A stretch of DNA of 64,000 bases from Thermodesulfobacteriota bacterium (GCA_965243595.1 OZ251569.1:2180203-2244202), one strand, 5' to 3'. Positions 8,824 to 57,604 are shown, counted from the stretch's first letter. Made by a program: numbers and translations. The notes: a model not told the origin generated them from the letters alone.

Positions 8824-8855
8824 GACAGTTATAAAGAATTTTTTTTACAACTGTC
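8824..8855. repeat. rhuM-type palindrome (degenerate)
   Basis: gacagttataaa-gaattttt-tttacaactgtc; related to the perfect palindrome at 39869. Confidence 0.7.
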
Positions 8856-8911
8856 GGACTCGTGAAATCGCCCTACTTCGGGTTTCGCCAAGTTCCCCCG
8901 CTTTTCGCCTG

Positions 8912-8936
8912 AACCTGCAAGAATTCCTTGCAAGTT
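8912..8936. repeat. rhuM-type palindrome (10-5-10)
   Basis: aacctgcaag-aattc-cttgcaagtt; the minus strand reads A-T-C-K-E-F-L-Q-V-Q. Confidence 0.8.
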
Positions 8937-9123
8937 GCCTTTTCCCTCTCGGTCCGGGATTCCCGATGTCGAACCGTCGAAAGTCCCGGGATGCCAAAGT
9001 TTCGAAACTGTTGGAAAGACGGCGGGGTCAGCCAGCACCATGAACGGGACGCGAGAGCCCGGCGCACCATGATTTGACTTCAACCGCGAGAACCATATGG
9101 TAATTTGCACAAGGAGAAGTACG

Positions 9124-9381
9124 GTGAGAACAGCTGTTGACGACCCAGAGACCGAACTGTCCGCCCTGATAAACGCGGCCCTTGCCGGTGAACCGGTAGT
9201 TCTGACGAGACGCGGCAGACCCGTGGCCGAAATAAAGCCTTTGCCCGAAGCGAAAAAAACCGCCGGGACGCTGGAGGCGGTCCGAAAAATAGTTGCGGAA
9301 GCCAAAAGCAAAGTTCCCGAAGGCGTTTCCGCCGCCGCGGCCGACAACTTTCTTTACGACGCCACCGGGATGCCTTCATGA
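9124..9381 (+). CDS. Phd/YefM (prevent-host-death) antitoxin, copy 1
   Basis: LSALINAALAGEPVVLTRRGRPVAEI is the Phd consensus; GTG start after AAGGAG; ATGA overlap with a VapC start. Confidence 0.85.
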   Translation: MRTAVDDPETELSALINAALAGEPVVLTRRGRPVAEIKPLPEAKKTAGTLEAVRKIVAEAKSKVPEGVSAAAADNFLYDATGMPS

Positions 9382-9428
9382 TCGCGGTCGACACGTCCGC
9401 AATCAAATCTCCAAACATGACTTCATGA
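9378..9428 (+). pseudogene. VapC (PIN) toxin stub
   Basis: MIAVDTSAI (VapC N-terminus), stop after 16 codons. Confidence 0.75.
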
Positions 9429-9600
9429 ATAACTCGCGAGGAAACCGCAATATCAAAACCAGATTTGTATAAAACAAATGCTATTTTGTGTATATTAAGA
9501 GATACTGTGGAAAAAGTTTTTGCGTCTTTTGGATGGAACCAGTTTTAGGTCTTCTCCGTCCGTTCTTGTACAGGAGGAGAAGGCTGGGAGGTAAGCATTC

Positions 9601-9822
9601 GTGCCCAGACTAATCGTTACTTTGTCCAAGGAGATTGACGACCGCCTTGAGGAAATCGCAAAGCAAGGAGGGATAAGCAAAGCGGAAGCCATGACGAAAG
9701 CGTTCGCCTTGCTGTCCGCCGTCAAGGAGAGAGAAAGTGAAGACACTTTGCTCGCCATCGTCAGGGAGAACTCCGAGAAAAAAGACTCCGCTGAAATCGT
9801 TTGTCAATTCGTCGGCGTGTAA
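9601..9822 (+). CDS. CopG/ribbon-helix-helix DNA-binding protein
   Basis: MPRLIVTLSKEIDDRLEEIAKQGGISKAEAMTKA fits the RHH pattern; RBS-like GGGAGG upstream. Confidence 0.75.
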   Translation: MPRLIVTLSKEIDDRLEEIAKQGGISKAEAMTKAFALLSAVKERESEDTLLAIVRENSEKKDSAEIVCQFVGV

Positions 9823-10076
9823 TGAGCGAAAGACGCGAAGAAATTGATTTAGAAGCTTATTACCCGAGAAACAGCACCGGCATCAGCGGGGAAGACAGGC
9901 TCAAGTTCGCAAAGCAATTGCTTTTCTGTCTTCTGGTCGTCTGTAGCACCATATTTGTCTGTTACGGTATTTATCCAGAAAACGAAGCGCTTATAAACAT
10001 GTTTGAACTGGTCAAAATAGGTGCTTTGCCCCTGATCACGCTGGTTATCTCTTTCTATTTTCCGAAAGCTTTGTGA
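9822..10076 (+). CDS. Small two-TM membrane protein
   Basis: TAATG coupling to the RHH gene; hydrophobic LLFCLLVVCSTIFVCYGIY and IGALPLITLVISFYFP. Confidence 0.65.
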   Translation: MSERREEIDLEAYYPRNSTGISGEDRLKFAKQLLFCLLVVCSTIFVCYGIYPENEALINMFELVKIGALPLITLVISFYFPKAL

Positions 10077-10127
10077 AGTCGTCGCCCCGTCAGGTCTTTT
10101 CATAAGCAATCGTTCCGTCTCACCAAC

Positions 10128-10150
10128 ACTGTCAAACGATATTGGACAGT
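10128..10150. repeat. rhuM-type palindrome (9-5-9)
   Basis: actgtcaaa-cgata-ttggacagt followed by atcggaccgagggaaaa (compare rhuM ...gttcaaaccgagggcaaa). Confidence 0.75.
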
Positions 10151-10237
10151 ATCGGACCGAGGGAAAATCCTTTCCTTCGGCGGACTCGTGAAATCGCCCG
10201 GCTTCGGGTTTCGCCAAGCTCCCCCGCTTTTCGCCTG

Positions 10238-10262
10238 AACCTGTAAGAATTCCTTACAAGTT
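10238..10262. repeat. rhuM-type palindrome (10-5-10)
   Basis: aacctgtaag-aattc-cttacaagtt; differs from the 8912 copy by a compensatory C/G to T/A pair. Confidence 0.8.
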
Positions 10263-10448
10263 GCCTTTTCCCTCTCGGTCCGGGGTTCCCGACGTCGAAC
10301 CGTCGAAACTCCCGCGATGCCAAAGTTTCGAAACTGTTGAAAGACGGCGGGGTCAGCCGGCGCCATGAACGGGACGCGAGAGCCCGGCGCACCATGATTT
10401 GACTTCAACCGCGAGAACCATATGGTAATTTGCACAAGGAGAAGTACG

Positions 10449-10706
10449 GTGAAAATAGCTGTTGACGAGGCAGAGAGCAAACTGCCCGCCCTGATAAACG
10501 CGGCCATTGCGGGTGAACCGGTAATTCTGACGAGACGCGGCAGACCCGTGGCCGAAATAAAGCCTTTGCCCGAAGCGAAAAAAACCGCCGGGACGCTGGA
10601 GGCGGTCCGAAAAATAGTCGCGGAAGCCAAAAGCAAAGTTCCCGAAGGCCTTTCCGCCGCCACGGCCGACAACTTTCTTTACGACGACACCGGGATGCCT
10701 TCATGA
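10449..10706 (+). CDS. Phd/YefM antitoxin, copy 2
   Basis: VKIAVDEAESKLPALINAAIAGEPVILTRRGRPVAEI. Confidence 0.87.
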   Translation: MKIAVDEAESKLPALINAAIAGEPVILTRRGRPVAEIKPLPEAKKTAGTLEAVRKIVAEAKSKVPEGLSAATADNFLYDDTGMPS

Positions 10707-10765
10707 TCGCGGTCGACACGTCCGCAATCAAAGCTCCAAACATGACTTCCAAGGTGACTTCATGA
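10703..10765 (+). pseudogene. VapC (PIN) toxin stub
   Basis: MIAVDTSAI, stop after 20 codons; loses VapC similarity at the same point as copy 1. Confidence 0.75.
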
Positions 10766-10783
10766 ATAATACGACTATCACGA

Positions 10784-11203
10784 TTGGAACATACTGCGAT
10801 GTTCAGCCGTCGAATCATGAAAAACCGCACATTGACAAAGCTGTCGGTAACCGAGTTGCTGGAAACCGCGGGGAAAGAAAACTGGGACGGTGAAGACGCG
10901 TTGCCCGTAACTCCCGGGACCGTTCAGCTTGCGGAAAGATTCGTACATCTTCTTCCAGAGTTTATCAACCCGCCCCATGTCTGCGCGTCGCCCGTCGAGA
11001 AAATCAACTTCGAGTGGTTCGTGTCGAAAGACGCCATGTTGACCGTAAGCGTATGCCCTTCGGAGGAAATCGCGTTTGCGGGCATTTTCGACGACTCGGA
11101 GATTCATGGAGAAAAATCCTGGGCCGAGGGATATCCGCTGCCGTCTCCCATACCGAGCTGTTTCGACATGCTGCGGAAAAAAGCGGTTTCGGAAACCAGA
11201 TAA
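10784..11203 (+). CDS. Hypothetical protein
   Basis: 139-aa ORF with globular composition (ENWDGEDALPV...INFEW); start uncertain. Confidence 0.6.
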   Translation: MEHTAMFSRRIMKNRTLTKLSVTELLETAGKENWDGEDALPVTPGTVQLAERFVHLLPEFINPPHVCASPVEKINFEWFVSKDAMLTVSVCPSEEIAFAGIFDDSEIHGEKSWAEGYPLPSPIPSCFDMLRKKAVSETR

Positions 11204-11321
11204 TCCATGAATGAAATCGATGAACCGCTCGCGCGATTCGTACCTCGGTCTTTCGCTTCCGATTAAGAAAAGGCTTTACGTCTTCGGACCGGGGACAACA
11301 TGGCGAATCCCCCGCTCATGC

Positions 11322-11346
11322 AACCGTCAAACAATATTTGACAGTT
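11322..11346. repeat. rhuM-type palindrome (10-5-10), 24/25 identical to the one inside rhuM
   Basis: aaccgtcaaa-caata-tttgacagtt versus rhuM coding strand aactgtcaaa-caata-tttgacagtt. Confidence 0.85.
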
Positions 11347-11513
11347 CGAATCGAGAGAAAATCCCTTCCCCCGGCGGACTCTCAAACGCCCGAATTCGGA
11401 TTTCGCCGCCGTCGGAATCCCGTAAAAGCGGCAAAGGGAATCAGCCGCCAGCGGAAATTTTTCGCAACCCCGGGTCAAGAACACAAACCGTAAAGTTCTC
11501 CCCGAGAGGCGGC

Positions 11514-11541
11514 TTGCCGAAAACCGAAAGCCGTATAGAAT
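11514..11541 (+). promoter_or_regulatory. Conserved putative promoter of the NERD-like paralogs
   Basis: TTGCCG-16 nt-TAGAAT with the shared CCGTATAGAATT motif, about 50 nt before ATG 11593. Confidence 0.6.
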
Positions 11542-11592
11542 TCTGCCGCGCCGCGAGACGGCGCAGGGCTTCCCCCCGACAAATCCCGTTCC

Positions 11593-13428
11593 ATGGCAAG
11601 AACCGGAAAATCCCCGAAACGCGCGGAAACCGAAAGGCTTCTGCCGCGCCTTTTCGAAAACACCTTCCTTCGGTACGCGGGCTTTCTCGACCCGCGCAGG
11701 GAAGACGGCCGCAGGCTGTGCGACGCGATGGTCGTTCACCTGGACCACGTCTTCGTTTTTCTCGAAGGCAAAAGCGGAGCCCTGCAGAACGCCGCAGCCA
11801 GGGGCCCGAAAATCCCCGAGTCGGCGTGGCGTCGCTGGAAAAAGGAGGCCGTGGAGAGAAATCTCCGGAAAGCGAGGGTCGCCGGGAACTACGTGAGAAG
11901 CGGGAAACCGGTTTTCCTCGACCGCCGGCGGCGGGAAAGAGCGGCGGTCGATTCCCCGCCCGAGGCGAGGATTCACGCGCTGCTGGCGGTGCGCGGGGCG
12001 GAGAAGGCCCGGGAGAAACGGCCCGGGGACGGCGCGGCCTTCGGCGTCTTTTACGGAAATCAGCGTCCCGGCGGGGGCGAAGACGGGTTTTTCGTGCATC
12101 TCGACGGGAAAAGCCGCGAGCACGTTCTCGACGAGCGAGACCTCGTGATTTTCGAGGAGATGGACTCCGGGGCCGACCTGCTCGCGTTTTTCGCGGAAAA
12201 GGAAAGGGCCGCGGAGCGCCACGGGCGCTTCGAGTGCCGGGGGGAGGAGGAACTTCTGGCCCGCCACCTTCTGGGCCTGCCTTTCGAGACCGGCGACGGG
12301 GACATCTCCCTCTTCGTCCCCGAAGAAGGCGCGTGGCGGACCTTCGTCTCGCAGGGGGGCCGCCACAGGACGGAGAAGATGAGAGAATCCGCCCGCCCGT
12401 GGAACGATCTTCTGGTCAGGGCGCGGAGAAGCTTCGAGCACGGAACGGAATTTTCACAGGTAAACCCATCCAGGGTCGGTCACCCCCTGCGCCTCATGGA
12501 GTCGGAGACGCTGTCCGCCCGCGCGGAACTGGGCGAGAGAATGCGCGAAGCCGAAAGCCGCTTTTCCGAAGACGAGGCGGCGCGGTTCGACGTTCTGGAT
12601 TCCCCGGGCGACCCCCGCACGCTCTACGCCTTTCTGCAGATGAGATTTCCCTCGGACCCGTGGACCGAGGACGGTTACCGCGGGACGCGCGAGCGGGTGC
12701 TCGAGATGCTGTGCGGAGCGCTGAAAATCGCCCGTCCGGACGCCGACCGCGTGATAGGCGTCGTCCGCGAGGCGCCGGGGTCCGCCAACAGGGTCCCCGA
12801 CGACTTCATCCTGCTCGACTGCGCGGGGTGGAACGAGGACGACCACGGCGATTACGGAACGGAGAACCTGCTTCCGGCCTGGAGAACCTTCGTAGAAAAG
12901 TGCCTCTCCGGCGGAGGAAGGTTCGCGGAGATTCCGCCCCGAGGAGAACCGCCGTGGCGCGAGGCGACGATGTTTCCGTTCACCCGGGAGGACGCGACCG
13001 CTTTTCTCAGGGACATGGAGGAGGAAGGCGACCGCCTGCTCGGCTCCGAGCCGCCGGCCCAGGTGGAAGACTGCAGGCTATGGGCGGACCGCGTCCTGCG
13101 CTGTCTCGACGTGATATTCGGGCGGAATCCCGGGAGAAGCTCTCCCCTTGCCGGGAGCAGAGAGGACATCGTCGACTTTTTCGTCGAGGCCGGCAGGGGG
13201 TACGGGACATACAAGGGTCCTTGCGAACGCGACGGGCTGGACAAGATGAGGGAGGAAGTCATGGGCAAGACGATCAGAGTTCGAAGGGAAAAGGCGATGA
13301 CGGAAGCGCTCGGACTTCAGATGGAATGCGTCGCGCGGGCGCTGGGACTGCTGGACCCGCGGGATGTCCCGCCCGAAACGCGGACGGGAGACGGAGAGGA
13401 AGAAAGACCCGCGGCGTACCGCCCCTAG
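11593..13428 (+). CDS. NERD/PD-(D/E)xK-like family protein, paralog 1
   Basis: 611 aa; LFENTFL..RLCDAMVV..VFVFLEGKS, EEMDS..DLL..EKE, GEEELLA, YAFLQ, VIGV..PDDFILLD, all shared with the other paralogs; extra C-terminal FPFTREDA domain. Confidence 0.75.
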   Translation: MARTGKSPKRAETERLLPRLFENTFLRYAGFLDPRREDGRRLCDAMVVHLDHVFVFLEGKSGALQNAAARGPKIPESAWRRWKKEAVERNLRKARVAGNYVRSGKPVFLDRRRRERAAVDSPPEARIHALLAVRGAEKAREKRPGDGAAFGVFYGNQRPGGGEDGFFVHLDGKSREHVLDERDLVIFEEMDSGADLLAFFAEKERAAERHGRFECRGEEELLARHLLGLPFETGDGDISLFVPEEGAWRTFVSQGGRHRTEKMRESARPWNDLLVRARRSFEHGTEFSQVNPSRVGHPLRLMESETLSARAELGERMREAESRFSEDEAARFDVLDSPGDPRTLYAFLQMRFPSDPWTEDGYRGTRERVLEMLCGALKIARPDADRVIGVVREAPGSANRVPDDFILLDCAGWNEDDHGDYGTENLLPAWRTFVEKCLSGGGRFAEIPPRGEPPWREATMFPFTREDATAFLRDMEEEGDRLLGSEPPAQVEDCRLWADRVLRCLDVIFGRNPGRSSPLAGSREDIVDFFVEAGRGYGTYKGPCERDGLDKMREEVMGKTIRVRREKAMTEALGLQMECVARALGLLDPRDVPPETRTGDGEEERPAAYRP

Positions 13429-13594
13429 CCGCCGGCCGAAGAAGTTTCGGACAGGACACATCCTTGTCCGATGCCTTTTTCGTCCAGCCGGCCGTCAGAA
13501 GACGTTCCGACGTCTTCTTCGTCAAAACGCTCCTCTCTCTCCCGAGCAAGGGAGCGACGACTTTTTCATGAAACCGCGCCACGACGCTTTCCCG

Positions 13595-13629
13595 TCGGCA
13601 ACCGTCAAACGGTATTTGACAGTTGCCGA
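13595..13629. repeat. rhuM-type palindrome (15-5-15, one mismatch)
   Basis: tcggcaaccgtcaaa-cggta-tttgacagttgccga; reads SATVKRYLTVA on + and SATVKYRLTVADGK on -. Confidence 0.85.
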
Positions 13630-13925
13630 GAGAAAACACTTCTTCCGTCGGACCATCGGAACCACCCGACTTCGGACTTCGGCAAGTCCTCTCGCTTCCG
13701 GCTCGAACCTGAAACCGCGCAAGAATTCCCCGCAAGTTGATTTCTCCGTTCAATCCGGATTTTCAGGATCAGACCTCGGCGGTCGCAAAGAAATTCCTTA
13801 CGGCCGCCGGATTCAGCTCCGGCGGCAATCCCTCAGGGTAAAACGAAGATGATTACCACCCTCCATCTGCACCGAGGAAATCCCCGCGAGGGTCTCCTCC
13901 GCCCCGAAAATTCCCCGAAGCCCCG

Positions 13926-13954
13926 TTTACCGGGAACCGAAATCCGTATAGAAT
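13926..13954 (+). promoter_or_regulatory. Conserved putative promoter of the NERD-like paralogs
   Basis: TTTACC-17 nt-TAGAAT with CCGTATAGAATT. Confidence 0.55.
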
Positions 13955-14063
13955 TTCCCGACGGCGGACAGACTCCCCGAAGCCCGGGGGCGCGAAGTCC
14001 GATGACGAGAACCGCGGAACGTCCGGTTCCGGACATCCGCCGGAGCGAGACGCCAGGAGGACG

Positions 14064-15797
14064 ATGACCGATTCCCGAAATATCCCGCTGCTCGGCGAGC
14101 TTCTGGAAAACTCCTTTCTCGAGTACTGGGGCTACCGCCCTCTCGGAGCGGATGGAAACCCGCTCTGCGACCTCGCGACCGCGTTTTCCGGCCGCCTGCT
14201 CCTTTTCGCGGAAATCGAGCCGCCTCCCGCCGCCGCGGAGAGTTCCTCGGCGCTGCGCGCGGCGACGCGGCGGTGGAAGGAGGAGATTCTCGACCCCGCC
14301 CTGGAAGGACTCAAACTCGCGGGAGACCGCGTCGTGGGCGGCGAGGCGTTCTGCAGGGACTACCCGGACCGGATGATGCTCCCCGCGGAGCGTCTGGCGG
14401 AGGAAAACGCGAGCGTTCACAGGTTCGCGGTCGCGCGGGGGGAACTCCGTGCCGAGAACGCGGGCGTCGAGTTTTCGGTTTCCTACGGGGACCCCGGACG
14501 CGGGGACGACGGAGCTTTGGTGCGGCTCGACGGAAACGACCCCGCCCACCTGCTCCTGGGGGGCGGCGTTTTCGCGCACCTGGACACACTGGCCGATTTT
14601 CTCTGCTATGTCCAGGCAAAAGAAGACGCCGCGAAAAGACACGAACTTCTGGCCTACGGGGCGGAAGAAGACTTCCTCGCCCTGTACCTCGGGGGCGGCG
14701 TCACGCCCTCGGAATCCGAAGACAGGGAGCGAGGTTCCCTGACGGCGCGGGCGGGACTCTGGGAAGAGTTTCGCGAATCGCCCGTTTTCCGAAGACTCCT
14801 GGAGAACCGCGAGAATTCCCGCTTCTGGGACGAACTTGAGCGTGCGGCGCGGCAGACTTTTCCGGATCACGGAGCCGCCGTCTGTCCCGAGAGAATCAGG
14901 GACCCGGCGGACTTCATAGCCTTCGCGCCGCGCGCGGAACGCGCAGCGCTCTCGCTCGAAATGATCGAGGATCAGGCCCGATTCGCAAGAGAAGGCTCGG
15001 CGGTCGAATTCAGCGTCATGCGTTCCGGGTTCTACGAGAGGATGTGCTACGCGTTTCTCCTGACCAGGCCTCCCGAAGGACGTCCGAACGGCAAAGAGCA
15101 CGCGATGCTTCGGAGGGAAAAGCTCGAGATGGCCTGCGGGGTGGCGAAAAACAGGATTCCGGAGACCGACGCCGTGATAGGCATAGCGAGGGAAGCGCCG
15201 GGCCCCCGGGCGGTCGCTCCCGCCAGCGACGAGTTCATCCTTTTCATCTGCGCGCTGTGGGGAGAGCGGGAAAGGGTCCTGTACGACGAGGAACTTCTGG
15301 GAGGAGAGTTTCTCCCCGGCGACGAAGATCCCGTCCTCGAGCATGCAGAACTGGCGGAGAGGATGACGCGGGAGCTTTTTCCCGTGACGAAGCGCGAGGC
15401 GCTGGTCTTTCTGGACGCCATGGCGGGGGAGGGAAAACGGCTGCTTTCGGAAAGAGGCGAGGACCCCGCGGGAGAGAGAAAGGAATGGGCCGCGACCGCC
15501 GGAGGATACCTCGAGACGGTTTTCGGAGTTTCTCCCGGCTCCCGCGCCCTTGCGAAAGGGGGAAGCGCGATACCGGCCGGTTTCGCGGAACTTACCGGAA
15601 AATACGACCTCGCGGACTCCGTCCCCGCGCCCGACGCCGTCCCGGGAACGGAAACCGATGCGACGCTCGCGGCCCAGATAGAAATTCTCGGCAGGACGAT
15701 GAGGATGATCGGCGAGGGGAAGAAGACGAAAAGGCGGAAAACGAGGAAGCCCAGACCCAAAAGACCGAAGAGGAAGAAAAAATCGAAAAGAAGATAG
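14064..15797 (+). CDS. NERD-like family protein, paralog 2, with Lys/Arg-rich tail
   Basis: 577 aa; LLENSFL..PLCDL, HLDTLADF..KE, YGAEEDFLALYL, LEMACG, VIGIARE, DEFILF; tail KTKRRKTRKPRPKRPKRKKKSKRR. Confidence 0.75.
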   Translation: MTDSRNIPLLGELLENSFLEYWGYRPLGADGNPLCDLATAFSGRLLLFAEIEPPPAAAESSSALRAATRRWKEEILDPALEGLKLAGDRVVGGEAFCRDYPDRMMLPAERLAEENASVHRFAVARGELRAENAGVEFSVSYGDPGRGDDGALVRLDGNDPAHLLLGGGVFAHLDTLADFLCYVQAKEDAAKRHELLAYGAEEDFLALYLGGGVTPSESEDRERGSLTARAGLWEEFRESPVFRRLLENRENSRFWDELERAARQTFPDHGAAVCPERIRDPADFIAFAPRAERAALSLEMIEDQARFAREGSAVEFSVMRSGFYERMCYAFLLTRPPEGRPNGKEHAMLRREKLEMACGVAKNRIPETDAVIGIAREAPGPRAVAPASDEFILFICALWGERERVLYDEELLGGEFLPGDEDPVLEHAELAERMTRELFPVTKREALVFLDAMAGEGKRLLSERGEDPAGERKEWAATAGGYLETVFGVSPGSRALAKGGSAIPAGFAELTGKYDLADSVPAPDAVPGTETDATLAAQIEILGRTMRMIGEGKKTKRRKTRKPRPKRPKRKKKSKRR

Positions 15798-15915
15798 CGG
15801 CCGAGCCCGACGCGGTCGCGGGGCGGGAACGGCGCGGCGAAGCAACGCTCATCAAGAAAACGCAGGGAAAAAACCGCGGCGGAGACATTGAAGATGCCCG
15901 CGCGGAATCCGGACG

Positions 15916-19251: not shown

Positions 19252-19335
19252 TCCCGCGCTCCCCGTCCCTCCGGCCGGGAATTATACCACGCGGGGCGTG
19301 GACGCGACGCGGCGAAGGTCCAGGAGAGCCCCCGC

Positions 19336-19373: not shown

Positions 19374-19396
19374 GTCCCCACTATGGAAAAATCCCC

Positions 19397-39868: not shown

Positions 39869-39897
39869 TCAGTTGTAAAGAAATCCTTTACAACTGA
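39869..39897. repeat. Perfect rhuM-type palindrome (12-5-12)
   Basis: tcagttgtaaag-aaatc-ctttacaactga; translates SVVKKSFTT. Confidence 0.9.
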
Positions 39898-40973: not shown

Positions 40974-40979
40974 CGGGGT

Positions 40980-45627: not shown

Positions 45628-45632
45628 CGGGT

Positions 45633-46363: not shown

Positions 46364-46374
46364 AATGTTAATGA

Positions 46375-49300: not shown

Positions 49301-50223
49301 AAGCGTCTCTCAACATCCAGAAACTTTCCGATTTTCCCGCTTAAGATAGAATCAAAATCTGACAGAACAACATTGGCGAAGAAACCGGAGGCGACAAGTC
49401 CCTGAGGCAATGCTACATGTTCAACCCCTTCAATAGTTTGTCGGTCGGAGTTGGACCACCGCCAGTTGAATACACGTTCCGCAAAATCGAAAAACCGCTT
49501 CTCTCTCAAGCTGTTTTTGCGCTGAAAAGTGCGAAGTTTTTCATTCAACAGTGAAGGACTTATCCGGTCGTAGAATTCGGATAAGTCGCTATGTATCACT
49601 GCGACCTCTGAGTTAGGGTTCTTCTTTGCTACTAAACCTGCGACAACATCTGACCGTTCTAGAAACACTCTGTAATCGTGAAAATATTGGCGATAAAGTT
49701 TAGTGCTTCCCCAACGATGTAGTAGATCATTCTCGCCAGAGTCCGCAAAATCGCAAAAAAGCCGATGTCCGTAAGCAAGAATTTTTTTGCGGTTTTCCTT
49801 AGCTTTTTCGGTTTCTTTGATCGGCAACCGAGGATCTCCGAGAAAAGTTTCCACACGGTCGGCCAGACACATCATAATCGCCGTCGCCACTACCTGATCT
49901 CTGAGTGCGACATGCGCGAGCGGACGCAACTTGAGATCCGTTTCTTTTCTTGGCCGCCAGTTACCTTCCCCATCAAATTCCCATTTTTGCGATTTCGGGG
50001 CCGGAACCATTCTCAGAGGTCGCGGTCGCCATTTCTCCGGATTTTTCAATTCATCCTGAATCTCGTGAATAAAATCGGGAATCCGTAACGTTTGATAATC
50101 AATGTCGAGAGTGTCGGCGTACCAGCTATGATATCGCAAGTAAGAAGATGTCTTCTTCCACGCCTGCATGAGCACGCATTCAAGCCCAATGTCTTCCAAT
50201 CTTGGGTTAAGTCTCTCCTTCAC
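46375..50223 (-). CDS. Reverse transcriptase-nitrilase fusion (DRT1/UG1/UG5-like defence-associated RT)
   Basis: 1282 aa; RT motifs LRPLAHV, HSDLSEFYD, LPQGLVASGFFAN, YYVDDIRL, INKQKT; C-N hydrolase triad VFPEL, QGKRHL, SVCFDATD, plus NNGQYGGS. Confidence 0.9.
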   Translation of the reverse strand: MKERLNPRLEDIGLECVLMQAWKKTSSYLRYHSWYADTLDIDYQTLRIPDFIHEIQDELKNPEKWRPRPLRMVPAPKSQKWEFDGEGNWRPRKETDLKLRPLAHVALRDQVVATAIMMCLADRVETFLGDPRLPIKETEKAKENRKKILAYGHRLFCDFADSGENDLLHRWGSTKLYRQYFHDYRVFLERSDVVAGLVAKKNPNSEVAVIHSDLSEFYDRISPSLLNEKLRTFQRKNSLREKRFFDFAERVFNWRWSNSDRQTIEGVEHVALPQGLVASGFFANVVLSDFDSILSGKIGKFLDVERRFLLEDACYYVDDIRLVVRIDKGRMPEGQDIKDYLINWLQELLESNAPDLLINKQKTKVTVRGSKKLFLVPQSKAAQRIQNEISGTFDMLHGTELVGAIENFFHTQKRYSTSSDVEKAGRTSLFVGMSDMTDETASRFAAARFRRTFRSLRPLLATSQEAENQYHYMGDDGEVAVDDPEVSSFVLPDQLVLSKEQLDEHARLFAMSLIEEWIANPANVRLLRVAFDMYPDEKFLEKVLDLLRPGWESRRFYRKRRKIYLYCLAELFRAGATETAMVSDEDCLPEDISAEKYHERLAEEAVSIFNDYLREPRPKRHPWYLMQQVMLYLTARKALPEDSETPSKIPSSLKHYFRFSDFLAGDLPKSLEERAIFLVIARTGFGIVDLKRLVNNGKEAGKFLTQVNRISPPVAHQLWGEWRENATGHLIQIARRLGLESGEKNEAESVTVADLANETDNPFCDERNLLALASWLMGLDNEYFKDITPWQILCRWQFSEGEDFGKVDTESFGLLDKHAFPTVARLFGAPDWCENDKEQRKFRTGLLLRFAIRGSTALDSSYTALSRPKPLTYNRPFSHWEQQRYSGYQGRAAFGQPWLPLSSFVEDMLFQLIRWPGAGISTKIKDLVQIRREVNERIHSLRSANTVSSQLFLEQKSPFPYKAPSKDFSRPLRIGIVQSIIPDSEDYKDRCKENDPELLKDGSFRMRHRAHVATLLQGVSHMLRVRESHGKCGGPDDIGLDLLVFPELAIHPEDLTTLFLPFIRKHKCIVLCGMVYHKKYKFDPDSELLNSCFWLIPEWTRSNGFQIRLIEQGKRHLPCEESNKVSGLVSFRPVQWLIEYEWRNKKYNKPLVLSASVCFDATDLKLAADLMRLSDLYIVCALNKDVSTFDAMSKSMSYHMFQGVILVNNGQYGGSSFFMPYKKQFHRQVFHLHGQPQATISFAEVDPEKLLERPDGYENSFPKGEWKTPPAGWKKKTLNRRL

Positions 50224-50331
50224 AACATTCCACCCACATTCAAATGCGACAACTGTTTAATCTTCCTATTTTCAGACATGGAAATTAGATAAAACCATCA
50301 CGGGTTGGGAAACCGCAACTGTCAGTTCGCC

Positions 50332-51060: not shown

Positions 51061-54000
51061 TCAGAACGCCCCCTTGGCGCGGTTGACGCGGGTTACGTGG
51101 ATTATCCTCTCGATTATCTGCTTGGCGGCCTCAAGCCCGACCATTTCGAACAATCCGGGCAGAAGCCTCTTTCGGATTTCCTTCTCCATGCTCAGACGAT
51201 CGAGAGAATGGGCAGAGACGGCGTTGTCGACGACCTCGTCCATGTACAAAGACCGACGGACGATCTCCTCGTGCTCTCCTTCTTCAAGACTCTCGAAATG
51301 GTCTTCGCCGAGGACGAGGCGGAAGATTCCGTAGTAGGCCCTGGCGTGCTTTCTGTCCTCCAAAACATCCGGAACCGTCTCCACGTCCCTGGCCACCAGT
51401 CTTTCCTCAAGCTCCTTGAACGGAAGATACATCTGGTAGCCGAACTTTCCCTCCGCTTCCTCGATGGCTCTTTTCAGAAGTTCCGAAAACACCTCCCTCG
51501 CGTAGGGGTCGTCTTCCATCTCCTGACTGATGACTCTCCTTATCCGGCTTCTGATCATGTCGGTTCTGTTTCGCGCCTCGTCTTCCGTCCATTTCTCGGG
51601 ATCTTCTCCACCGCCGCCTAGTTCATCCACGGAAACCCTCGTTCCGGGCGCGTGAACCTGACGGCCCTCTATGCGCTCGTCGACAAGTTTTTGGATCTGG
51701 TCCTCGTAGGCGCTGTAGGCGACGGTTTCGCTCGCGTCCTGCCTGACGTTCCGCCGAACGGAGGCGAAAAACCGAAGATCCCCCTTGTAGGCATCGACGA
51801 GAGCGTCGGTAACGGAGGAATCTTCGAAAAAAGATCGCGAGGACAAGGCGGTCTTGAGACACATTCCGTATTCGGTAAGAGCCGCGTAGAAATTTTCCCG
51901 GATCTCCTGACGCGCGTCGTAAATGCTTCCCTCGGCGTCTTCTTCGTACTGGGGCTCCAGCAGGTCCCGGTACTGCTTGGGGTCTTTCTTGTTTTTCACA
52001 GGGGAAAAGATCGCGCGCAGACGCTCGCGCAGACGCGGCAGCTTTCTGTATTCGGAGTCGACGCGGCTATACAGGCCGTCAAGATCTTCTATGTCGTAAC
52101 CCCTCTGGGTGCGGTTAGCGTGGTCCTGATACTCCCTGATCGCAGTGTCCAGTTCTCTCAGGATGCCCCGGTAGTCTATGAGAAGACCGTGACGTTTGGC
52201 GTCGTGGAGCCTGTTCACGCGCGCTATCGCCTGAATCACGTTGTGTCCGCTGAGCTGCTTGTCGATGTAGAGAACCGCGTTTCTCGGTTCGTCGAATCCC
52301 GTGAGAAGCTTGTCGACCACGACGAGCAGGTCCGGCGGACCGTCGGTTCCGAAACGGTCTATGACGTCGCGCTCGTATTCCCTCGGGTTTTCCCGAACGT
52401 TCTCCTTCCACCACGCCTGAATTTCAGGAGTTTCGTCGACGTCCGAATGACCCTCGCGGGCGTCGGGAGGAGAGATCACCACGGCGCTTGTCACGAGACC
52501 CGTTTCGTCCAGGTGCTTCTTGTAGCGGATGGCGGAACTTCTGCTCTGGGTGGCGACCTGTCCCTTGAGCCCCTGGCCGAGTTTCTTGAAGTTCTCGTTG
52601 AAATGAACGGCGATGTCCCAGGCTATGAGCCTGATCCGGTTGTCCGAACCGTATACCGCGCCCGCCCTTCCCCATTTTTTCCTAAGGTCGTCTTTCTGGG
52701 TTTCAGAAATATCCGCGGTTATCTTCTCGAACCAGCTGTCGACGGCGGCAGCGTCCATGTCCAGCTCGGGGACGCGCTCTTCGTAGAGAAGAGGGGTTAC
52801 TGCCCCGTCTTCCACCGCGCGGCGCATGGTGTAGGCGTGAACGATCGGACCGAAGCGGTTTTCGGTCTTCTCCTCTTTGAGAAGCGGAGTCCCGGTAAAG
52901 GCTATGTAGCACGCGTTGGGAAGAGCCTTTCTCATTCTCTGGTGGGTTTCCCCTTCGTGGCTGCGGTGGCCCTCGTCGACCAGAACGACTATGTCTTCGC
53001 TTTCGTTTCGACACTCCGCCAGCTTCGAGGCCGTGGCGAACTTGTCGATTATCGAGAAGATGATCCGCTCGTCTCCCCTGCCTATGCGTTTGGCGAGGTC
53101 CCTGCCGGAAGAGACCTTGGCCCGCTCGCCCGCTTTCATCCCGGCGATCTCGGAGCCGAAGGCGCCTCCCGCGAGAAAAGCGCGGGCGAGCTGCTTTTCA
53201 AGATCGATCCGGTCGGTCACGACTACGAACCTGCAGTTCCTGAGAGTCGGATGCAGAAGCAGGGTCTTGCAGAGAAAAACCATGGTAAGCGACTTGCCGG
53301 AACCGGTCGTGTGCCAGACCACCCCGCCCCGGGGGTCTTTTCCCCCGCGGCCTTGCTCGATCTTCCTCACGAGCGCCCTTATGCCGAAAAACTGATGATA
53401 GCGCGAGACGATCTTGTCCTTTCCGCCGACGAAAAGAACGTGAAAGCGCACGAATTCAAGCAGCCGCTCGGGCGAGAGAAGGCTTACGATCAGCCTGTCC
53501 TGGTCCGTGGCAAGCTGTTTTTGGGACCAGAGACTCTCGAAATATTCTCGGACTTCCGGGAGACGGTTGGCGAATATCGCGGCTCTCGTTTCGTCCGAGA
53601 GGGAGGCGTTCTTTATTCGCGAAAAATGTTCCTCGTCGAATTCTTCCTCCCTCCATTTTGCCCAGAGCCGGCCGGGCGTCTTCGTGGTGGCGTAGCGACC
53701 GTCCTCGCCGTTCACGCTCAGAAGAAGCTGACTGTAGACGAACAGGTGGGGGATCTCGTCGTTTCCCTGGTTGCGGATGTTCTGGCTTATTCCCTCCTCG
53801 ATCATGGACTTGTTGGGGTTGCCGGAATCCGGCCTTTTCGCTTCAATCACCGCAAGGGGAATTCCGTTCACGTAGCAGACTATGTCCGGCCGTCGGGTAC
53901 GAGCGCCGCCGGACGAGAGAACCTCGAGCTCTTCCGTAACGACGAAGCTGTTGGCTTTCGGATTTTTCCAGTCGATGATCGGAATCGTGGGAGAGTGCTT

Positions 54001-54357
54001 CTTCTTGCCGTCGATGAACTCGGTGACGGTGACTCCGAGGCAAAGCTTGTTGTAAAGACGCTCGTTTGACGAAATCAGCCCCTCGCGAAGCGAGGCATCC
54101 GAAAGTTCCCGGACGATCTGCTCTATGGCGTTGTTGGAAAGCGCGTGCTCGGCTCCCTTGTATTCGAAGCGTCGCTCGCTGAGAGTTTTAATGAGTATCT
54201 CTCGCATAAGAACTTCCCGTGTGCTTCCCCGCGCGGAAAGGCACTCCTCGGCGGACATGAAGGTCCACCCCGCGGCTACAAGAGTCTGCAACGCCGGGAT
54301 GTGCGAGCTGTATTGCTCGGTGGTCCTAAGAATTCCGTTCACTAATTTTCCCCCCAC
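51061..54357 (-). CDS. hsdR: Type I restriction endonuclease subunit R
   Basis: RPDIVCYVNGIPLAVIEAKR, WHTTGSGKS, VDEGHRS, FTGTP, LLTGFD, QAIARVNR. Confidence 0.96.
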   Translation of the reverse strand: MGGKLVNGILRTTEQYSSHIPALQTLVAAGWTFMSAEECLSARGSTREVLMREILIKTLSERRFEYKGAEHALSNNAIEQIVRELSDASLREGLISSNERLYNKLCLGVTVTEFIDGKKKHSPTIPIIDWKNPKANSFVVTEELEVLSSGGARTRRPDIVCYVNGIPLAVIEAKRPDSGNPNKSMIEEGISQNIRNQGNDEIPHLFVYSQLLLSVNGEDGRYATTKTPGRLWAKWREEEFDEEHFSRIKNASLSDETRAAIFANRLPEVREYFESLWSQKQLATDQDRLIVSLLSPERLLEFVRFHVLFVGGKDKIVSRYHQFFGIRALVRKIEQGRGGKDPRGGVVWHTTGSGKSLTMVFLCKTLLLHPTLRNCRFVVVTDRIDLEKQLARAFLAGGAFGSEIAGMKAGERAKVSSGRDLAKRIGRGDERIIFSIIDKFATASKLAECRNESEDIVVLVDEGHRSHEGETHQRMRKALPNACYIAFTGTPLLKEEKTENRFGPIVHAYTMRRAVEDGAVTPLLYEERVPELDMDAAAVDSWFEKITADISETQKDDLRKKWGRAGAVYGSDNRIRLIAWDIAVHFNENFKKLGQGLKGQVATQSRSSAIRYKKHLDETGLVTSAVVISPPDAREGHSDVDETPEIQAWWKENVRENPREYERDVIDRFGTDGPPDLLVVVDKLLTGFDEPRNAVLYIDKQLSGHNVIQAIARVNRLHDAKRHGLLIDYRGILRELDTAIREYQDHANRTQRGYDIEDLDGLYSRVDSEYRKLPRLRERLRAIFSPVKNKKDPKQYRDLLEPQYEEDAEGSIYDARQEIRENFYAALTEYGMCLKTALSSRSFFEDSSVTDALVDAYKGDLRFFASVRRNVRQDASETVAYSAYEDQIQKLVDERIEGRQVHAPGTRVSVDELGGGGEDPEKWTEDEARNRTDMIRSRIRRVISQEMEDDPYAREVFSELLKRAIEEAEGKFGYQMYLPFKELEERLVARDVETVPDVLEDRKHARAYYGIFRLVLGEDHFESLEEGEHEEIVRRSLYMDEVVDNAVSAHSLDRLSMEKEIRKRLLPGLFEMVGLEAAKQIIERIIHVTRVNRAKGAF

Positions 54358-55412
54358 ACGTTTGCGGAGTCAGAATCAAAGAACGAAATTTCCAAAGGAC
54401 TTCCCTCCCTTCGCAAAGAAGTGATGTTTCCGACCCGCTTGGCGATTTTCTTGTTGATGTTGGATTCAGGGTTGCCATATATGCCAATGTATAGCTTCCT
54501 AAAACATCCCCGCCCCAGTCTCTGAAATATGTGATCGTCGTTTTCCGCTAGCGAATGTCCGAAGATGAAAAAACAGTGTTTGGGTTGTTGAACGTTTGCC
54601 GAGAACACCTTGTAGCATTGATACAAGTACCCGCTGTGACGAATCTTGCTCTTTTTCTGTTTGTTGGTTCCTTCAGCAACGAACAGAGGAAATTTGTCTT
54701 CTCTAATAGCACTGCTTACTTGTTTAACAAGCGATACACCTTTGCGAACCCAAGTATATTTCTTTAATTCGGAGCCTGAATCAAAGAGATGAAGAGCTCC
54801 ATGAAGGAACAAAACATTGGCTCTGTGAGGTTCGTCAGCCTGCCAGACCACATAGTCGACATTGGGATCATCTTCATCGTTTCCAAAACCGTCATTACCG
54901 TTCAAGATAATTTTTTCACCAGTGGGAGAAACGTCATGCATAAGTGCCCAATAAAGAAGGAGGTCGTAATTCAGAGTGAAAACGCATCCTTTTGCATCTG
55001 GTCCCAAGAAATGGCTTAGAAACCTTCTGCAGGCATGAAATTTCTGATCATTAATGGTGTTGGGATTTTTGGGGTGGTTACTTGCGATTGTTGACACAAG
55101 TATTTCCTTAAGTTTCTCAGCATGTTTAATCATCTTGTTTCTGGTTTTGACGCGGCGTGGAGCATAGACACTCAAAACCGTTGCTGAAGTTTCCAATGTG
55201 CGGATAACTATCTCAAAATCTTGGGATTCAAGTTTTCTAAACACGCTTTTCGCTTCTGGCACATCTCTGAAATCTGCTTGTTTATAAAGAGAATAGTAAT
55301 CAAAAATGTCGGGCAAGCATCCTATGCTAAAACCGTTGCCCAATAGAAGATGTCGTTTTGAATACTGGGCAGAGTCCGAGATCGCATCTGCGAAAGAAAT
55401 AAGCTTATCCAT
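54342..55412 (-). CDS. DUF4917-family (Sir2-like fold) protein
   Basis: LLLGNGFS, FTLNYDLLLYW, FLHGALHLF, PLFVAEG, FGHSLAENDDH; AT-rich. Confidence 0.78.
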   Translation of the reverse strand: MDKLISFADAISDSAQYSKRHLLLGNGFSIGCLPDIFDYYSLYKQADFRDVPEAKSVFRKLESQDFEIVIRTLETSATVLSVYAPRRVKTRNKMIKHAEKLKEILVSTIASNHPKNPNTINDQKFHACRRFLSHFLGPDAKGCVFTLNYDLLLYWALMHDVSPTGEKIILNGNDGFGNDEDDPNVDYVVWQADEPHRANVLFLHGALHLFDSGSELKKYTWVRKGVSLVKQVSSAIREDKFPLFVAEGTNKQKKSKIRHSGYLYQCYKVFSANVQQPKHCFFIFGHSLAENDDHIFQRLGRGCFRKLYIGIYGNPESNINKKIAKRVGNITSLRREGSPLEISFFDSDSANVWGEN

Positions 55413-55428
55413 TGGCTATCTCCTCCAA

Positions 55429-56559
55429 TTAGACACGATGTTCTCCAGTTAGAAGTTGTCGAATAAGTGCATCCCTCTCTCTCTTTAAGCAATTGTATTT
55501 CTTTTGTAATGATTCAACCTTGTTGTCAAACGCAGAAAGAACAACAGAGATTTTTTCTTGTTCTTCAGAGTCTTCGGGAAAAAGAATTGTGAGTTGTTCC
55601 AAATCTCTTTTTTGAATATTGGGAAGGCCAGACCCAACTCTTAAGCGCATGATTTTTCTTTCATTGAGCTTTAAAATTTGAAAGAGCAAATCTCTTGAAA
55701 TCTTTATGTCTTCAAGAGAATAACAATGACCTCCACACCAAAATCTAACTTTTAGTAAGTTTACAAAACCACATGACTCTCCGCCTTCGCTTATCGTAAT
55801 AGTATTTGCGTTCCTATTGAAACTACTTGTGTAACCCGAAGGCATAATTCCTCCATTAATAACTGGGAATTGATCTTCATCAGATAATCCACTCTTGTTT
55901 AGTTGAACCCCTTTTGATACATTGCAAATTTGATTTAACGGCTTTTGAATCCATCTCCCTTTAATTTCGGGAAATCGACATTTTCCAGAAAGCAGTTTTC
56001 GCATGAGAATTTTTTTCTGGGTTTGCCCATTTGCAATGATCTCTTTAATTGTCTCTATAGCGCAGTCCCAAGTGGAAAGGATTTTAGCGATCTTACGTTG
56101 CTCGGAAAAAGGTGGAACAGTGAACGTTAATCTCTCAAAATCCCTTTTCGTAAGTTCAAGAAAAGTCGAACCGCTCGCGTAGCGAACCAGAATGTTTTTG
56201 AAAAATGAAAGCAGGTAGAAAACAAATTCGTTGTCATATTCCGGATTAGTAATGAGATTCTTGAAACCTTGGTTTGTACAGACCGGCTCCGATGCGATGG
56301 CCAGTTCCCCGATGGTAGCACGCGTGCACACGAGAATTGAACCGGGCGGAACAAGTTTCGCCGAAGATGATTTCAACCCAGACTCAGTAATTCGACGGGC
56401 GGTCGACGAGATGTAGCGAGACGTGAGGTTTGTTATGTCCGTTTGCGTAGCCCAAGGGATATCCCCATCCCAGTAGGCGGGATTCGTGCTGTCGGGAGTT
56501 CCTCCGGAAACGATCTTTCCAATATCTCCGACCGATACTCTGCGCCATCCCTCAATCAT
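55429..56559 (-). CDS. hsdS: Type I RM specificity subunit S (two TRDs)
   Basis: GGTP..YWDGDIPW, TNQGF, GSTFLE, PPFSEQRKIA, GSGLPNI, EQEKI, LLTGE. Confidence 0.93.
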   Translation of the reverse strand: MIEGWRRVSVGDIGKIVSGGTPDSTNPAYWDGDIPWATQTDITNLTSRYISSTARRITESGLKSSSAKLVPPGSILVCTRATIGELAIASEPVCTNQGFKNLITNPEYDNEFVFYLLSFFKNILVRYASGSTFLELTKRDFERLTFTVPPFSEQRKIAKILSTWDCAIETIKEIIANGQTQKKILMRKLLSGKCRFPEIKGRWIQKPLNQICNVSKGVQLNKSGLSDEDQFPVINGGIMPSGYTSSFNRNANTITISEGGESCGFVNLLKVRFWCGGHCYSLEDIKISRDLLFQILKLNERKIMRLRVGSGLPNIQKRDLEQLTILFPEDSEEQEKISVVLSAFDNKVESLQKKYNCLKRERDALIRQLLTGEHRV

Positions 56560-57604
56560 CTTTCGTCCTTTTTTTCAAGGAAGTCCGCTTTTTTGAAACT
56601 TCCGCAATTTTCTCTAGTTCCTCGATGTCGTCCACTTGCTCTGCTTCCTCCCGTTCCGATTTCCTGCGTTCGGCATCAAACTCGGCGTAGCGGTCGTGAG
56701 CGACCTGCCTAGCCTGCTCCGCGGAAACGCTGCCAGCGGTGTACAGGAGAGGAAGTTCGTTGGCTACCAGAAACTCATTAAGTATGGTCTCCCATTCAAC
56801 CAGCCTGATGGTCTGCCGACGCCTGGCCCGCAACTCCGCAACATCAAGAAAGATACCCACGATAATGTTGAGTTCGCCGATCTCCTTTTCTTCAAGGTAG
56901 TTCTTGGCAACCGTCACATCGCTTTTGCGAACGCGTCTACCGCTCCGGGTGTTTGTCCAAGTAGTTAAACCCATGTTGCGCTTGTTCGGGTCGGAACGGG
57001 ATACGATCAATTCGGCAGCAGTCTGACTCGTTACGGCGTGGAGCATCTTGTTCTGCGTAATCGCGTAGAATTCTTGTACCGTTGGCGAGTTCGGGTCGTA
57101 GTCTTCGCTCAACGCCAGAATGTCGCGGACCTTGCTGTAGAATCTGGCTTCCGAAGCACGAATGTCGCGGATGCGCTCAAGCAGTTCGTCGAAATAGTCG
57201 TAGGTCGGGTCCTTGAGGCGCTCGTCGTCCATGGAAAACCCCTTGACAAGATAATCCATGAGAACGGTGTTGGCCCAACGACGGAACTGTGCGGCGCGCT
57301 GTGAACGGGTACGGAATCCGACGGCGAGAATCATTTCCAGATTGTAGAGCTGGACGGTTCGCTGAACCGAGCGTTTGCCCTCGGTTTGAACTGTCAAATA
57401 TTGTTTGACAGTTGCGGAATCATCAAGCTCTTCATCGGCAAATATTTTCCGTATGTGTACACTGATGTTCTGCTTCGTCGTATCGAAAAGCCGGGCAATT
57501 TCTGCCTGTGTCAGCCATACGGTACCATCAATGGCCCGAAGCTGGACCCTAGTCAGTCCGTCTCCGCTCGTATAGAGAATCAGCTCTCCCTTTTCCTCTT
57601 TCAT
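56552..57604 (-). CDS. rhuM: Virulence RhuM-family DNA-binding protein
   Basis: VWLTQAEIARLF..NISVHI..YNLEMILAVGFR..QFRRWA..KGFSMDDERLK..YFDELLERIRDIRASE..QNKMLHA..AKNYL. Confidence 0.92.
   Translation of the reverse strand: MKEEKGELILYTSGDGLTRVQLRAIDGTVWLTQAEIARLFDTTKQNISVHIRKIFADEELDDSATVKQYLTVQTEGKRSVQRTVQLYNLEMILAVGFRTRSQRAAQFRRWANTVLMDYLVKGFSMDDERLKDPTYDYFDELLERIRDIRASEARFYSKVRDILALSEDYDPNSPTVQEFYAITQNKMLHAVTSQTAAELIVSRSDPNKRNMGLTTWTNTRSGRRVRKSDVTVAKNYLEEKEIGELNIIVGIFLDVAELRARRRQTIRLVEWETILNEFLVANELPLLYTAGSVSAEQARQVAHDRYAEFDAERRKSEREEAEQVDDIEELEKIAEVSKKRTSLKKRTKDD
57389..57413. repeat. Perfect intragenic palindrome (10-5-10) in rhuM encoding ATVKQYLTVQ
   Basis: aactgtcaaa-tattg-tttgacagtt. 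Confidence 0.92.

Follow-up and report, generated by a model that had tools for sequence, protein, structure and literature searches.

The rhuM gene considered here belongs to a type I restriction-modification locus, where hsdM and hsdS flank it, in a 64,000-nt stretch of the genome of a Thermodesulfobacteriota bacterium (the window, G000:C1:2180203-2244202; the source genome, G000, is a single contig of 2.27 Mb with 58.5% G+C). Codons 64 to 72 of this gene form a perfect 25-bp palindrome, with 10-bp arms and a 5-bp spacer, that recurs at the same codons in nearly all of 160 homologs from many phyla and viral contigs, and its arms change in step with the residues of a predicted recognition helix encoded upstream of it. 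Judging from these sequence comparisons, the chances appear slightly better than even that the palindrome is RhuM's own operator, that helix and site diversify together, and that the intergenic copies of the same class in the window are satellite or orphan sites derived from rhuM-type fragments. According to structural models, the palindrome would most likely be bound by the N-terminal winged-helix-like domain of RhuM acting as a dimer.

RhuM aligns with positions 1-250 of the 252 in the Pfam profile PF13310 (335 bits, with a cut-off of 33.7) and is a member of this family; PADLOC classes the gene as the candidate defense family PDC-S05. In a genome-wide profile search, it was the sole PF13310 gene. 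RhuM/PDC-S05 genes abound in restriction-modification loci, prophages, and defense islands. In the passages of two papers that mention it, RhuM is predicted to be a toxin domain in restriction-modification neighborhoods (PMC3710099) and is listed among the neighbors of inversion targets (PMC9881135). The palindrome occupies nt 192-216 of the open reading frame (ORF), ~190 nt past the start codon; the minus strand encodes ATVKQYLTVQ followed by TEGK, just as described in an earlier reading of the window made from its sequence alone (the sequence-only reading).

Conservation of the palindrome in the RhuM family

Two sets of homologs were compared with the window gene, namely 80 rhuM loci spread over many phyla (the best 80 of 235 relatives, with 40-53% protein identity) and 80 loci from viral contigs, many of them near-duplicates. 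At least 9 Watson-Crick pairs form at the same codons in 58 of 62 genes (61 cleanly aligned loci plus the window gene), and the remaining 19 loci are also palindromic, in a second frame variant, AGTT..AACT. The encoded peptides are diverse (TCK..LQV, TIR..RIV, TVA..ATV, TAE..SVV, VVN..LTT, and VCN..LHT), while the symmetry of the DNA is kept. The sequence-only reading had expected the segment to be both palindromic and variable once homologous genes were aligned at the DNA level, and nearly all of them bear this out.

The best hairpin of the whole ORF falls within this 48-nt segment in 73 of 81 genes. In 72 of the 81, the native pairing was equaled by no more than 5% of 300 synonymous resamplings (mean z 3.4), and 79 beat codon-order shuffles at the same level. 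The outcome of the resampling points to a constraint on the nucleic acid and not on the protein alone. In a pairing test on 129 distinct 42-nt segments from both collections, pairing cells made up 87.9%, versus 63.6% after shuffling (0 of 500 shuffles reached the observed value), and the covariation score was 0.714 versus 0.249; slid controls paired at 21-41%, and all 12 pairs changed on both sides. The ten core pairs, read on the sense strand, comprise 1197 Watson-Crick, 18 G·T, 28 A·C, and 47 transversion-type cells. Since G·T is not commoner than A·C, this pattern argues for a symmetry of double-stranded DNA rather than for an RNA stem.

A full-text search of the literature turned up no mention of such a palindrome for rhuM, ORF6N, or Bro-N genes. 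As a separate observation, a Bro-N gene in a congeneric genome (G016; L094 1628-1655) has its own 28-nt palindrome with 10-bp perfect arms within the Bro-N coding region.

Co-variation of the arms with the predicted recognition helix

Grouping the aligned proteins by their class of palindrome also groups a motif at residues 42-50, which overlaps the predicted recognition helix TKQNISVHIRKIFA. The helix TTKQNIS is paired with the arm cores GTCAA and GTAAA, TTPQNIT with TTGTAAG, TTQQNIS with NACAAG, ..TINYH and TINEH with ATTCGA and ATCCGG, KSTVSEH with GTTCGG, KSTVSRH with GTTGCA, and DNISLH with CCGAG. The 80 viral-contig loci repeat the same pairings and add a new one (SVPNISQH with ATTAAG), and the pairings hold across both C-terminal subfamilies. 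The resident RhuM has the TTKQNIS helix, referred to here as K-type, which matches the TGTCAA class of its own palindrome and of three intergenic sites (39871, 11322, and 13600; sites are named by their first position).

The 245 variable protein columns were ranked by adjusted mutual information with arm class, a statistic that ignores phylogeny; the top 11 hold four arm-encoded residues and residues 43, 44, 45, 46, 48, and 49, and the best unrelated column reaches 0.27. The value for the helix motif is 0.46, compared with 0.12 for the variable linker columns 52-63, which are physically between the helix and the palindrome, and 0.16 for downstream columns. Whatever the bin of C-domain identity, two proteins with the same arm have ~0.61 of residues 43-49 in common. 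For two proteins with different arms, this fraction is 0.19-0.29 as long as C-domain identity does not exceed 0.75, and about 0.5 in the top two bins. At C-domain identities of 0.9 or less, same-arm and different-arm pairs are nearly alike in the linker (0.27 versus 0.25) and at the N terminus (0.35 versus 0.34); in the top bin (19 versus 5 pairs), the linker and N-terminal identities do differ. Residues 43-49, with which the predicted recognition helix begins, co-vary with the site in these comparisons, which likewise ignore phylogeny, as recognition residues do in repressor-operator pairs.

Several homologs provide natural experiments. Four rhuM genes from Paludibacteraceae (L021, L039, L035, and L013) are 94-100% identical over ~1 kb, in unrelated flanks, and their identity falls to 56-80% only in a ~100-nt patch that extends from the helix codons to the 3' arm. 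Each gene has its own pair of helix and palindrome, and the patch differs as a unit, which recalls a cassette exchange between alleles, though not from intergenic copies. This ~1-kb rhuM also moves as a single-gene cassette. In the locus L055, the internal site has decayed and the gene is flanked by two identical 29-nt palindromes, whose arms are those that accompany its helix class (RDKSVISKH) in L101, L102, L053, and L032; in this locus the helix appears to track the DNA site rather than the peptide of the wing. In L071, a second copy of the palindrome is found 20 nt past the stop codon. Extra copies of this kind are rare. As for shuffling of modules at the palindrome, none was apparent over the whole set, in which the identities of the N- and C-domains correlate (r 0.73) with no sharp outlier class.

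Predicted structure of RhuM

A sequence search of the PDB found no solved relative of RhuM. The AlphaFold2 models of the full-length protein and of residues 1-92 (mean pLDDT, 85.8 and 80.0, respectively) include strands within residues 7-31, helices at 33-39 and 44-56, and a β-hairpin at 66-87 (strands 66-75 and 78-87/88). The helix-turn-helix and the β-hairpin wing are present in both models, with pLDDT values there of 85-98 in the full-length model and 78-93 in that of the N-domain. Given a strand at codons 66-75, the palindrome can be predicted to encode the first strand of the wing, directly after the candidate recognition helix.

In structure searches with Foldseek, the full model produced only weak matches to DdrC (E 6.6e-4, TM 0.21-0.27), and the N-domain produced no match at an E value of 0.001 or better (E of at least 0.16). 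With VIA-align, the best match of the N-domain had a Z score of 4.5 and an rmsd of 2.6 over 53 residues, and the list consisted mostly of winged-helix proteins (ParA N-domain, TFE-alpha, Xis, NolR, SmtB, and MBP1) aligned to residues 27-90.

RhuM is predicted to form a symmetric homodimer, with a score of 0.71 versus 0.01 for the best of three controls, contacts that agree between runs in at least 94% of cases, and a partner pLDDT of at least 78. In a benchmark whose counts hold roughly, as a custom alignment was used, 20 of 30 proteins solved as one-chain pairs and 1 of 23 solved as single chains attained this mark. The combination of a palindromic site with a protein modeled as a dimer is the one seen in repressor-operator pairs.

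Intergenic copies and the repeated module

A genome scan for palindromes with 10-bp arms and a 5-bp spacer, with at most one mismatch allowed, found 154 of them, including 11 in the window. All six AT-rich AAC..GTT / AGTT..AACT members in the genome lie within the window, to which the family is confined in the 2.27 Mb. A K-type matrix, built from 17 K-type genes of other genomes only and scanned over all 2.27 Mb, ranked 39871 first (30.8 bits), the rhuM site at 57389 second (28.9 bits), and 11322 and 13600 joint third (23.9 bits each). The next match (17.0 bits) is in an unrelated coding region, and 10128 scores 9.5 bits (rank 18). The K-type set consists of these four sites and the weaker 10128 and 8824; the P-type set, with TTGyAAG arms, consists of 8912, 10238, and the decayed 13713. 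This genome encodes no protein with a P-type helix (T/S-P-Q-N-I/V-T), given that rhuM is its sole PF13310 gene and that it has no ORF6N or Bro-N genes.

These sites had been singled out in the sequence-only reading. The identity of the 11322 copy to the rhuM palindrome at 24 of 25 positions, the copy at 10128 (weaker than the others), the palindromes reading ATCKEFLQVQ at 8912 and 10238 (one mismatch each), the perfect palindrome reading SVVKKSFTT at 39871-39895, and the degenerate versions at 8824, 13713, and 13778 were all found again. The palindrome that had been placed at 13595 exists, with its core at 13600-13624 and one symmetry mismatch, and its symmetry reaches 14-bp arms (13596-13628). 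The rhuM-like 3' flanks exist as well, with the two labels swapped (accgagggaaaa follows 10128 and atcgagagaaaa follows 11322); they resemble rhuM codons 73-77. The double change from tgCaag/cttGca to tgTaag/cttAca between 8912 and 10238 is real, though the two sites lie in one ~560-bp duplication and are therefore not independent.

The intergenic copies belong to a repeated module of ~165 nt with four copies (A-D) in the window. Its order is a K-type palindrome, CGAGrGAAAA, CGGAC, a small CCCG..CGGG hairpin, a P-type palindrome, and TTTTCCCTCTCGG. Every copy lies in the gap between a preceding gene and the promoter-like box that belongs to the following cassette, and the copies share the strand of the genes that they precede; the cassettes comprise Phd/YefM antitoxin genes and large ORFs of unassigned function. 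The site at 39871 is also intergenic, ~125 nt upstream of a small minus-strand gene. Over the four module copies, 16 of 19 columns are invariant in the K-type arms, versus 54 of 143 in the rest of the module (Fisher p 1.4e-4); in the K-type loop, 2 of 5 columns are invariant. The P-type palindrome has decayed in modules B and C, and the K-type variants of modules D and A are switched exactly at the palindrome border. Within the ~560-bp duplication are the right half of the module, a Phd/YefM antitoxin gene (Pfam PF02604), and a truncated toxin start. The latter, a toxin-like ORF start (MIAVDTSAIK...), follows both Phd/YefM genes (9377-9432 and 10702-10757) and ends at the same point, after ~17 codons.

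Similarity of the intergenic copies to rhuM consists of the palindrome and ~20 nt of the 3' flank, with none on the 5' side. The DNA profile of the family covers them over about 35-60 nt only (E 0.07-1.1; 8912 is matched on the minus strand by nhmmer with E 0.067), and tblastn with RhuM at these copies yields only matches of 14-22 residues (E 12-15). A possible GFR-like stretch in module B, seen by eye only, had no support and was set aside. As the flank is rhuM-like, the intergenic copies probably began as fragments of rhuM-type genes.

A different repeat, a 44-nt box ending in CCGTATAGAATT, is common to 11499-11542 and 13912-13955, ~50-110 nt upstream of large ORFs with no assigned function (11593-13428 and 14064-15797). 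This box is also present in the congener G012, before a paralog, and looks like a promoter that travels with the cassettes.

Related genomes and sample contigs

PF13310 matches were found in only 3 of 36 genomes of the genus. The K-type class pattern has four sites in this genome, three in one congener, one in another, and none in 33 further congeners; a reversed control pattern has no match in the same genomes. The composite module was detected among 60 relatives in G012 only, plus two tiny chance-level matches elsewhere. G012 shares the island in a rearranged form and has the module, with three K-type and two P-type sites; it has no PF13310, ORF6N, or Bro-N gene and no match to a query with the RhuM N-domain. 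A search of G000, G012, G016, and G004 for ORF6N and Bro-N produced one match, the Bro-N gene in G016. Symmetry is gone from the G012 ortholog of 39871, where 4 of 22 arm positions have changed against a local identity of 86%; this loss fits relaxed constraint without RhuM. Other G012 sites are intact, and one of them, AACCGTAAAG..TTTACGGTT (G012:C1:1792497-1792521; position 26498 of the concatenated L089+L090), is a fully compensated K-type variant in which the C·A mismatch common to the window copies has become a C-G pair.

Contigs of runs X2, X4, X5, and X6 show no alternative form at 57389-57413 among the matches listed; rare inversions cannot be revealed by contigs. One X5 contig spans 56035-58084 with 95 differences, none of which falls within 57389-57413 among the matches listed. 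In addition, X2 and X5 contigs of another organism align solely along the conserved stretch past the palindrome (57336-57391) and continue into a different palindrome, of the ACTACTAAG type, indicating a second rhuM class in the same samples.

Possible operator function and alternative explanations

The sequence-only reading had left open two roles for these palindromes, as silent cassettes or conversion sites that diversify RhuM and as operators of RhuM-type proteins, one of them inside the gene itself. The palindromic homologs and the co-variation of arm and helix favor the latter, and the former finds no support in the window. As an operator, the rhuM palindrome would be bound by RhuM within its own reading frame, ~190 nt after the start codon, where the bound protein might act as a roadblock limiting its own expression or might be tethered to its gene; helix and site would diversify together into specificity classes. 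The intergenic sites at 39871, 11322, and 13600, and more weakly those at 10128 and 8824, could be bound by the resident RhuM. The cognate helix of 8912, 10238, and 13713 would be one that this genome does not encode. The module as such is lineage specific, intergenic, and positioned before gene cassettes of the same defense island.

Several findings weigh against an operator. The intragenic site is not at a promoter, so that site and regulated promoter do not overlap, and the intergenic copies precede promoter-like boxes (judged by reading) by ~40-290 nt. The noncoding copies (13596-13628, L055, and L088) extend the symmetry beyond that of the coding version, which an operator does not need. 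In a strict search, none of 160 genes had its own palindrome repeated within 1.5 kb, and G012 keeps K-type palindromes and the module without a detectable cognate protein. The N-domain resembles solved winged-helix domains only weakly (see the Z score and E values above). Finally, the sequences are related, and neither the mutual-information nor the pair statistics take account of phylogeny; the linker may be saturated with change; and, because the arm-encoded residues and the helix share one domain, contacts internal to the protein could produce part of the co-variation.

A bolder extension of the operator reading can be put forward tentatively, as a doubtful proposal. RhuM-type proteins would carry a self-encoded address, in which the DNA coding for the wing is the palindrome bound by the neighboring helix; the two would form an inseparable unit that falls into orthogonal classes, and orphan sites, dispersed ahead of the cassettes of defense islands, would be docking or control points that tie otherwise unrelated defense genes to the resident RhuM class.

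The best-surviving alternative to an operator, which is unlikely and still deserves serious weight, is that the intergenic copies are decayed leftovers of rhuM-type genes, spread by segmental duplication in a variable island and now devoid of function, with the palindrome persisting longest as the best conserved part. The resemblance of the flank to rhuM codons 73-77, the short and weak matches to the family profile, the location of 8912 and 10238 inside one duplication, the decay of the TTGyAAG copies in modules B and C, and the changed arms at the G012 ortholog of 39871 all agree with it. The sites of G012 persist without any rhuM or detectable cognate protein, which keeps this explanation alive. 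Mere relics, however, should not have K-type arms more conserved than the rest of the module, a symmetry that is extended rather than eroded at 13596-13628, or the compensated variant of G012, and similarity to rhuM in tblastn does not go beyond 14-22 residues.

It is improbable, if conceivable, that the palindrome is a hairpin or cruciform joint for the exchange of gene modules or the insertion of cassettes and that the intergenic copies are junction scars. In the near-identical Paludibacteraceae genes, the swapped patch stops at the 3' arm; in L055 the entire rhuM is bracketed by identical palindromes, and L071 has a copy just past the stop codon; the K-type variants of modules D and A switch at the palindrome border; and the longer stems and extended symmetry of the noncoding copies favor a joint. 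A joint leaves unexplained why the arm tracks residues 43-49 but not the linker, strict second copies are lacking in the 160 genes, and no recombinase is associated with the sites. The sole tyrosine recombinase nearby is XerC, encoded beside hslVU; it is the nearest of three PF00589 genes in the genome and matches TIGR02224 with 351 bits, compared with 147 bits for the integron-integrase model TIGR02249 (cut-off 265). Like integron attC sites, the window sites are imperfect palindromes with conserved AAC...GTT outer triplets and variable inner stems, located between small cassettes that include toxin-antitoxin genes. The attC consensus is RYYYAAC/GTTRRRY; unlike attC, the window sites measure 25-33 nt and have flanks that do not fit it (fit judged by reading). 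An integron attC array was rejected, with no integron integrase in the genome.

There is very little likelihood that the palindrome acts in RNA, as a stem-loop of the rhuM mRNA and neighboring leaders that controls stability or translation. Strong pairing with compensatory change, the common strand of intergenic copies and downstream genes, and the fold of module A (z -2.4) would suit such a stem; the folds of modules B and C (z -1.9 and -1.2) do not surpass those of shuffled sequences, and the three folds together were not convincing. An mRNA stem is disfavored because wobble pairs are not in excess on the sense strand and no Rfam family matches: with Rfam 15, the window has no match at the gathering score, and two chance-level matches lie in 8500-14200 (E 5.5 and 9.5). 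Nor would a stem account for the co-variation with the helix.

It is hardly credible that the intergenic copies are silent donor cassettes rewriting the variable segment of RhuM by gene conversion, in spite of the hypervariability of this segment between near-identical genes elsewhere and the inclusion of the loop in the near-identity of 11322 to rhuM, because homology is absent upstream of the palindrome and G012 has copies but no recipient gene; moreover, the part in common with rhuM is only ~35-60 nt, with ~20 nt downstream of the palindrome, TTGyAAG donors would uncouple the arm from the helix, half of the copies being mismatched to the resident helix class, and contigs of the four runs have no alternative form among the matches listed.

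Comparison with known systems

Autoregulated HTH (helix-turn-helix) repressor-operator pairs with diversified specificity include the controller (C) proteins with their C-boxes and the phage immunity repressors. Like RhuM, they combine a dimeric HTH protein (predicted in the case of RhuM), a palindromic site, classes of helix and site that change together, and a location in mobile defense loci. Unlike theirs, the RhuM site is inside the reading frame, in codons of the DNA-binding domain, and not at a promoter, and repression is only proposed. Intragenic or auxiliary operators are represented by lac O2 in lacZ and gal OI in galE, where an operator is likewise placed in codons and the constraints of coding and binding are superimposed. 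These two are auxiliary to a promoter operator, reside in a gene other than that of the repressor, and, unlike the rhuM palindrome, are not conserved family-wide with co-varying specificity.

Arrays of orphan modules in conflict loci are known from the displaced C-terminal fragments of Rhs/CDI toxins. Like these, the intergenic copies would be gene fragments from a conserved junction amassed in a variable island; unlike these, the window copies keep only ~45 nt, a palindrome that stays symmetric or extends. The winged-helix regulator HlyU of Vibrio acts on a cruciform-forming palindrome and shares with RhuM the combination of a winged-helix protein (predicted for RhuM) and a palindrome able to extrude a cruciform; as far as the passages on this site go, it differs in being intergenic and outside the regulator's own gene, with no specificity classes described (PMC10325908). 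REP/REPIN elements are, like the window copies, short extragenic palindromes in repeated modules; the window copies differ in being a handful, in one island, with a sequence shared with a coding segment. Assignment to REP/REPIN was rejected, as many chromosome-wide copies are required and all members of this family are inside the 64-kb window.

A conserved, putative binding site within the gene, together with a helix-to-site code, would offer a biochemical handle on which DNA each RhuM binds. Such genes would form a rare natural series for the evolution of protein-DNA specificity, with the site and its reader inseparable by recombination. An operator function might also explain the puzzling hairpin repeats that mark gene junctions in defense islands and would imply that some hypervariable peptide segments are shaped by a DNA constraint and not by a protein constraint.

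Genomic features of the window

The coordinates of the sites and genes discussed above are listed in Table 1.

Table 1. Palindromes, repeated modules, and genes of the rhuM locus (positions within the window)
Feature	Position	Strand	Remarks
rhuM	56555..57604	-	350 aa; Pfam PF13310, E 2.7e-100; PADLOC PDC-S05, E 1.3e-139
Palindrome in rhuM codons 64-72	57389..57413	.	Perfect, 25 bp (10+5+10); TGTCAA (K-type) class
Predicted recognition helix, codons 43-56	57437..57478	-	TKQNISVHIRKIFA; AlphaFold2 helix 44-56
K-type palindrome, AGTT..AACT frame variant	39871..39895	.	Perfect; reads SVVKKSFTT
Intergenic K-type palindrome	11322..11346	+	24/25 identical to rhuM sense strand; left end of module B
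Intergenic K-type palindrome	13600..13624	+	One symmetry mismatch; left end of module C
Weaker K-type palindrome	10128..10150	+	Followed by ggaccgagggaaaa; left end of module A
Degenerate palindrome, AGTT..AACT variant	8824..8855	.	Weak K-type; abuts right half of module D
P-type (TTGyAAG) palindrome, module D	8912..8936	-	One mismatch; reads ATCKEFLQVQ
P-type palindrome, module A	10238..10262	-	One mismatch; reads ATCKEFLQVQ; symmetric double change relative to 8912
Decayed P-type palindrome, module C	13713..13737	-	
Module A	about 10120-10290		
Module B	about 11314-11490		
Module C	about 13590-13770		
~560-bp segmental duplication, copy 1	8855..9432	+	Repeat families D1, D2, D4; 94-96% identity
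~560-bp segmental duplication, copy 2	10181-10757		
hsdM	57686-59194		Type I restriction-modification locus
hsdS	55432-56559		Type I restriction-modification locus
DUF4917 / PADLOC PDC-S21 gene	54345-55412	-	E 9.5e-120; between hsdS and hsdR
hsdR	51064-54357		Type I restriction-modification locus

With the PDC-S21 gene and rhuM both located within it, the type I operon holds two candidate single-gene defense inserts. The restriction-modification locus is adjoined by an intact DRT type 1 defense gene (46378-50223, minus strand), whose product, a 1282-aa reverse-transcriptase protein, matches PADLOC Drt1a over its full extent (E 0, 1090 bits). Several large paralogous ORFs of unassigned function occupy 14064-38600, in more copies than in G012, and two of them (23723-26065 and 33214-34452) contain a 2OG-Fe(II) oxygenase domain. 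The island also includes an IS110-family transposase gene (28429-29637, minus strand) and a DDE (DDE_Tnp_1) transposase gene (61580-62926, plus strand).

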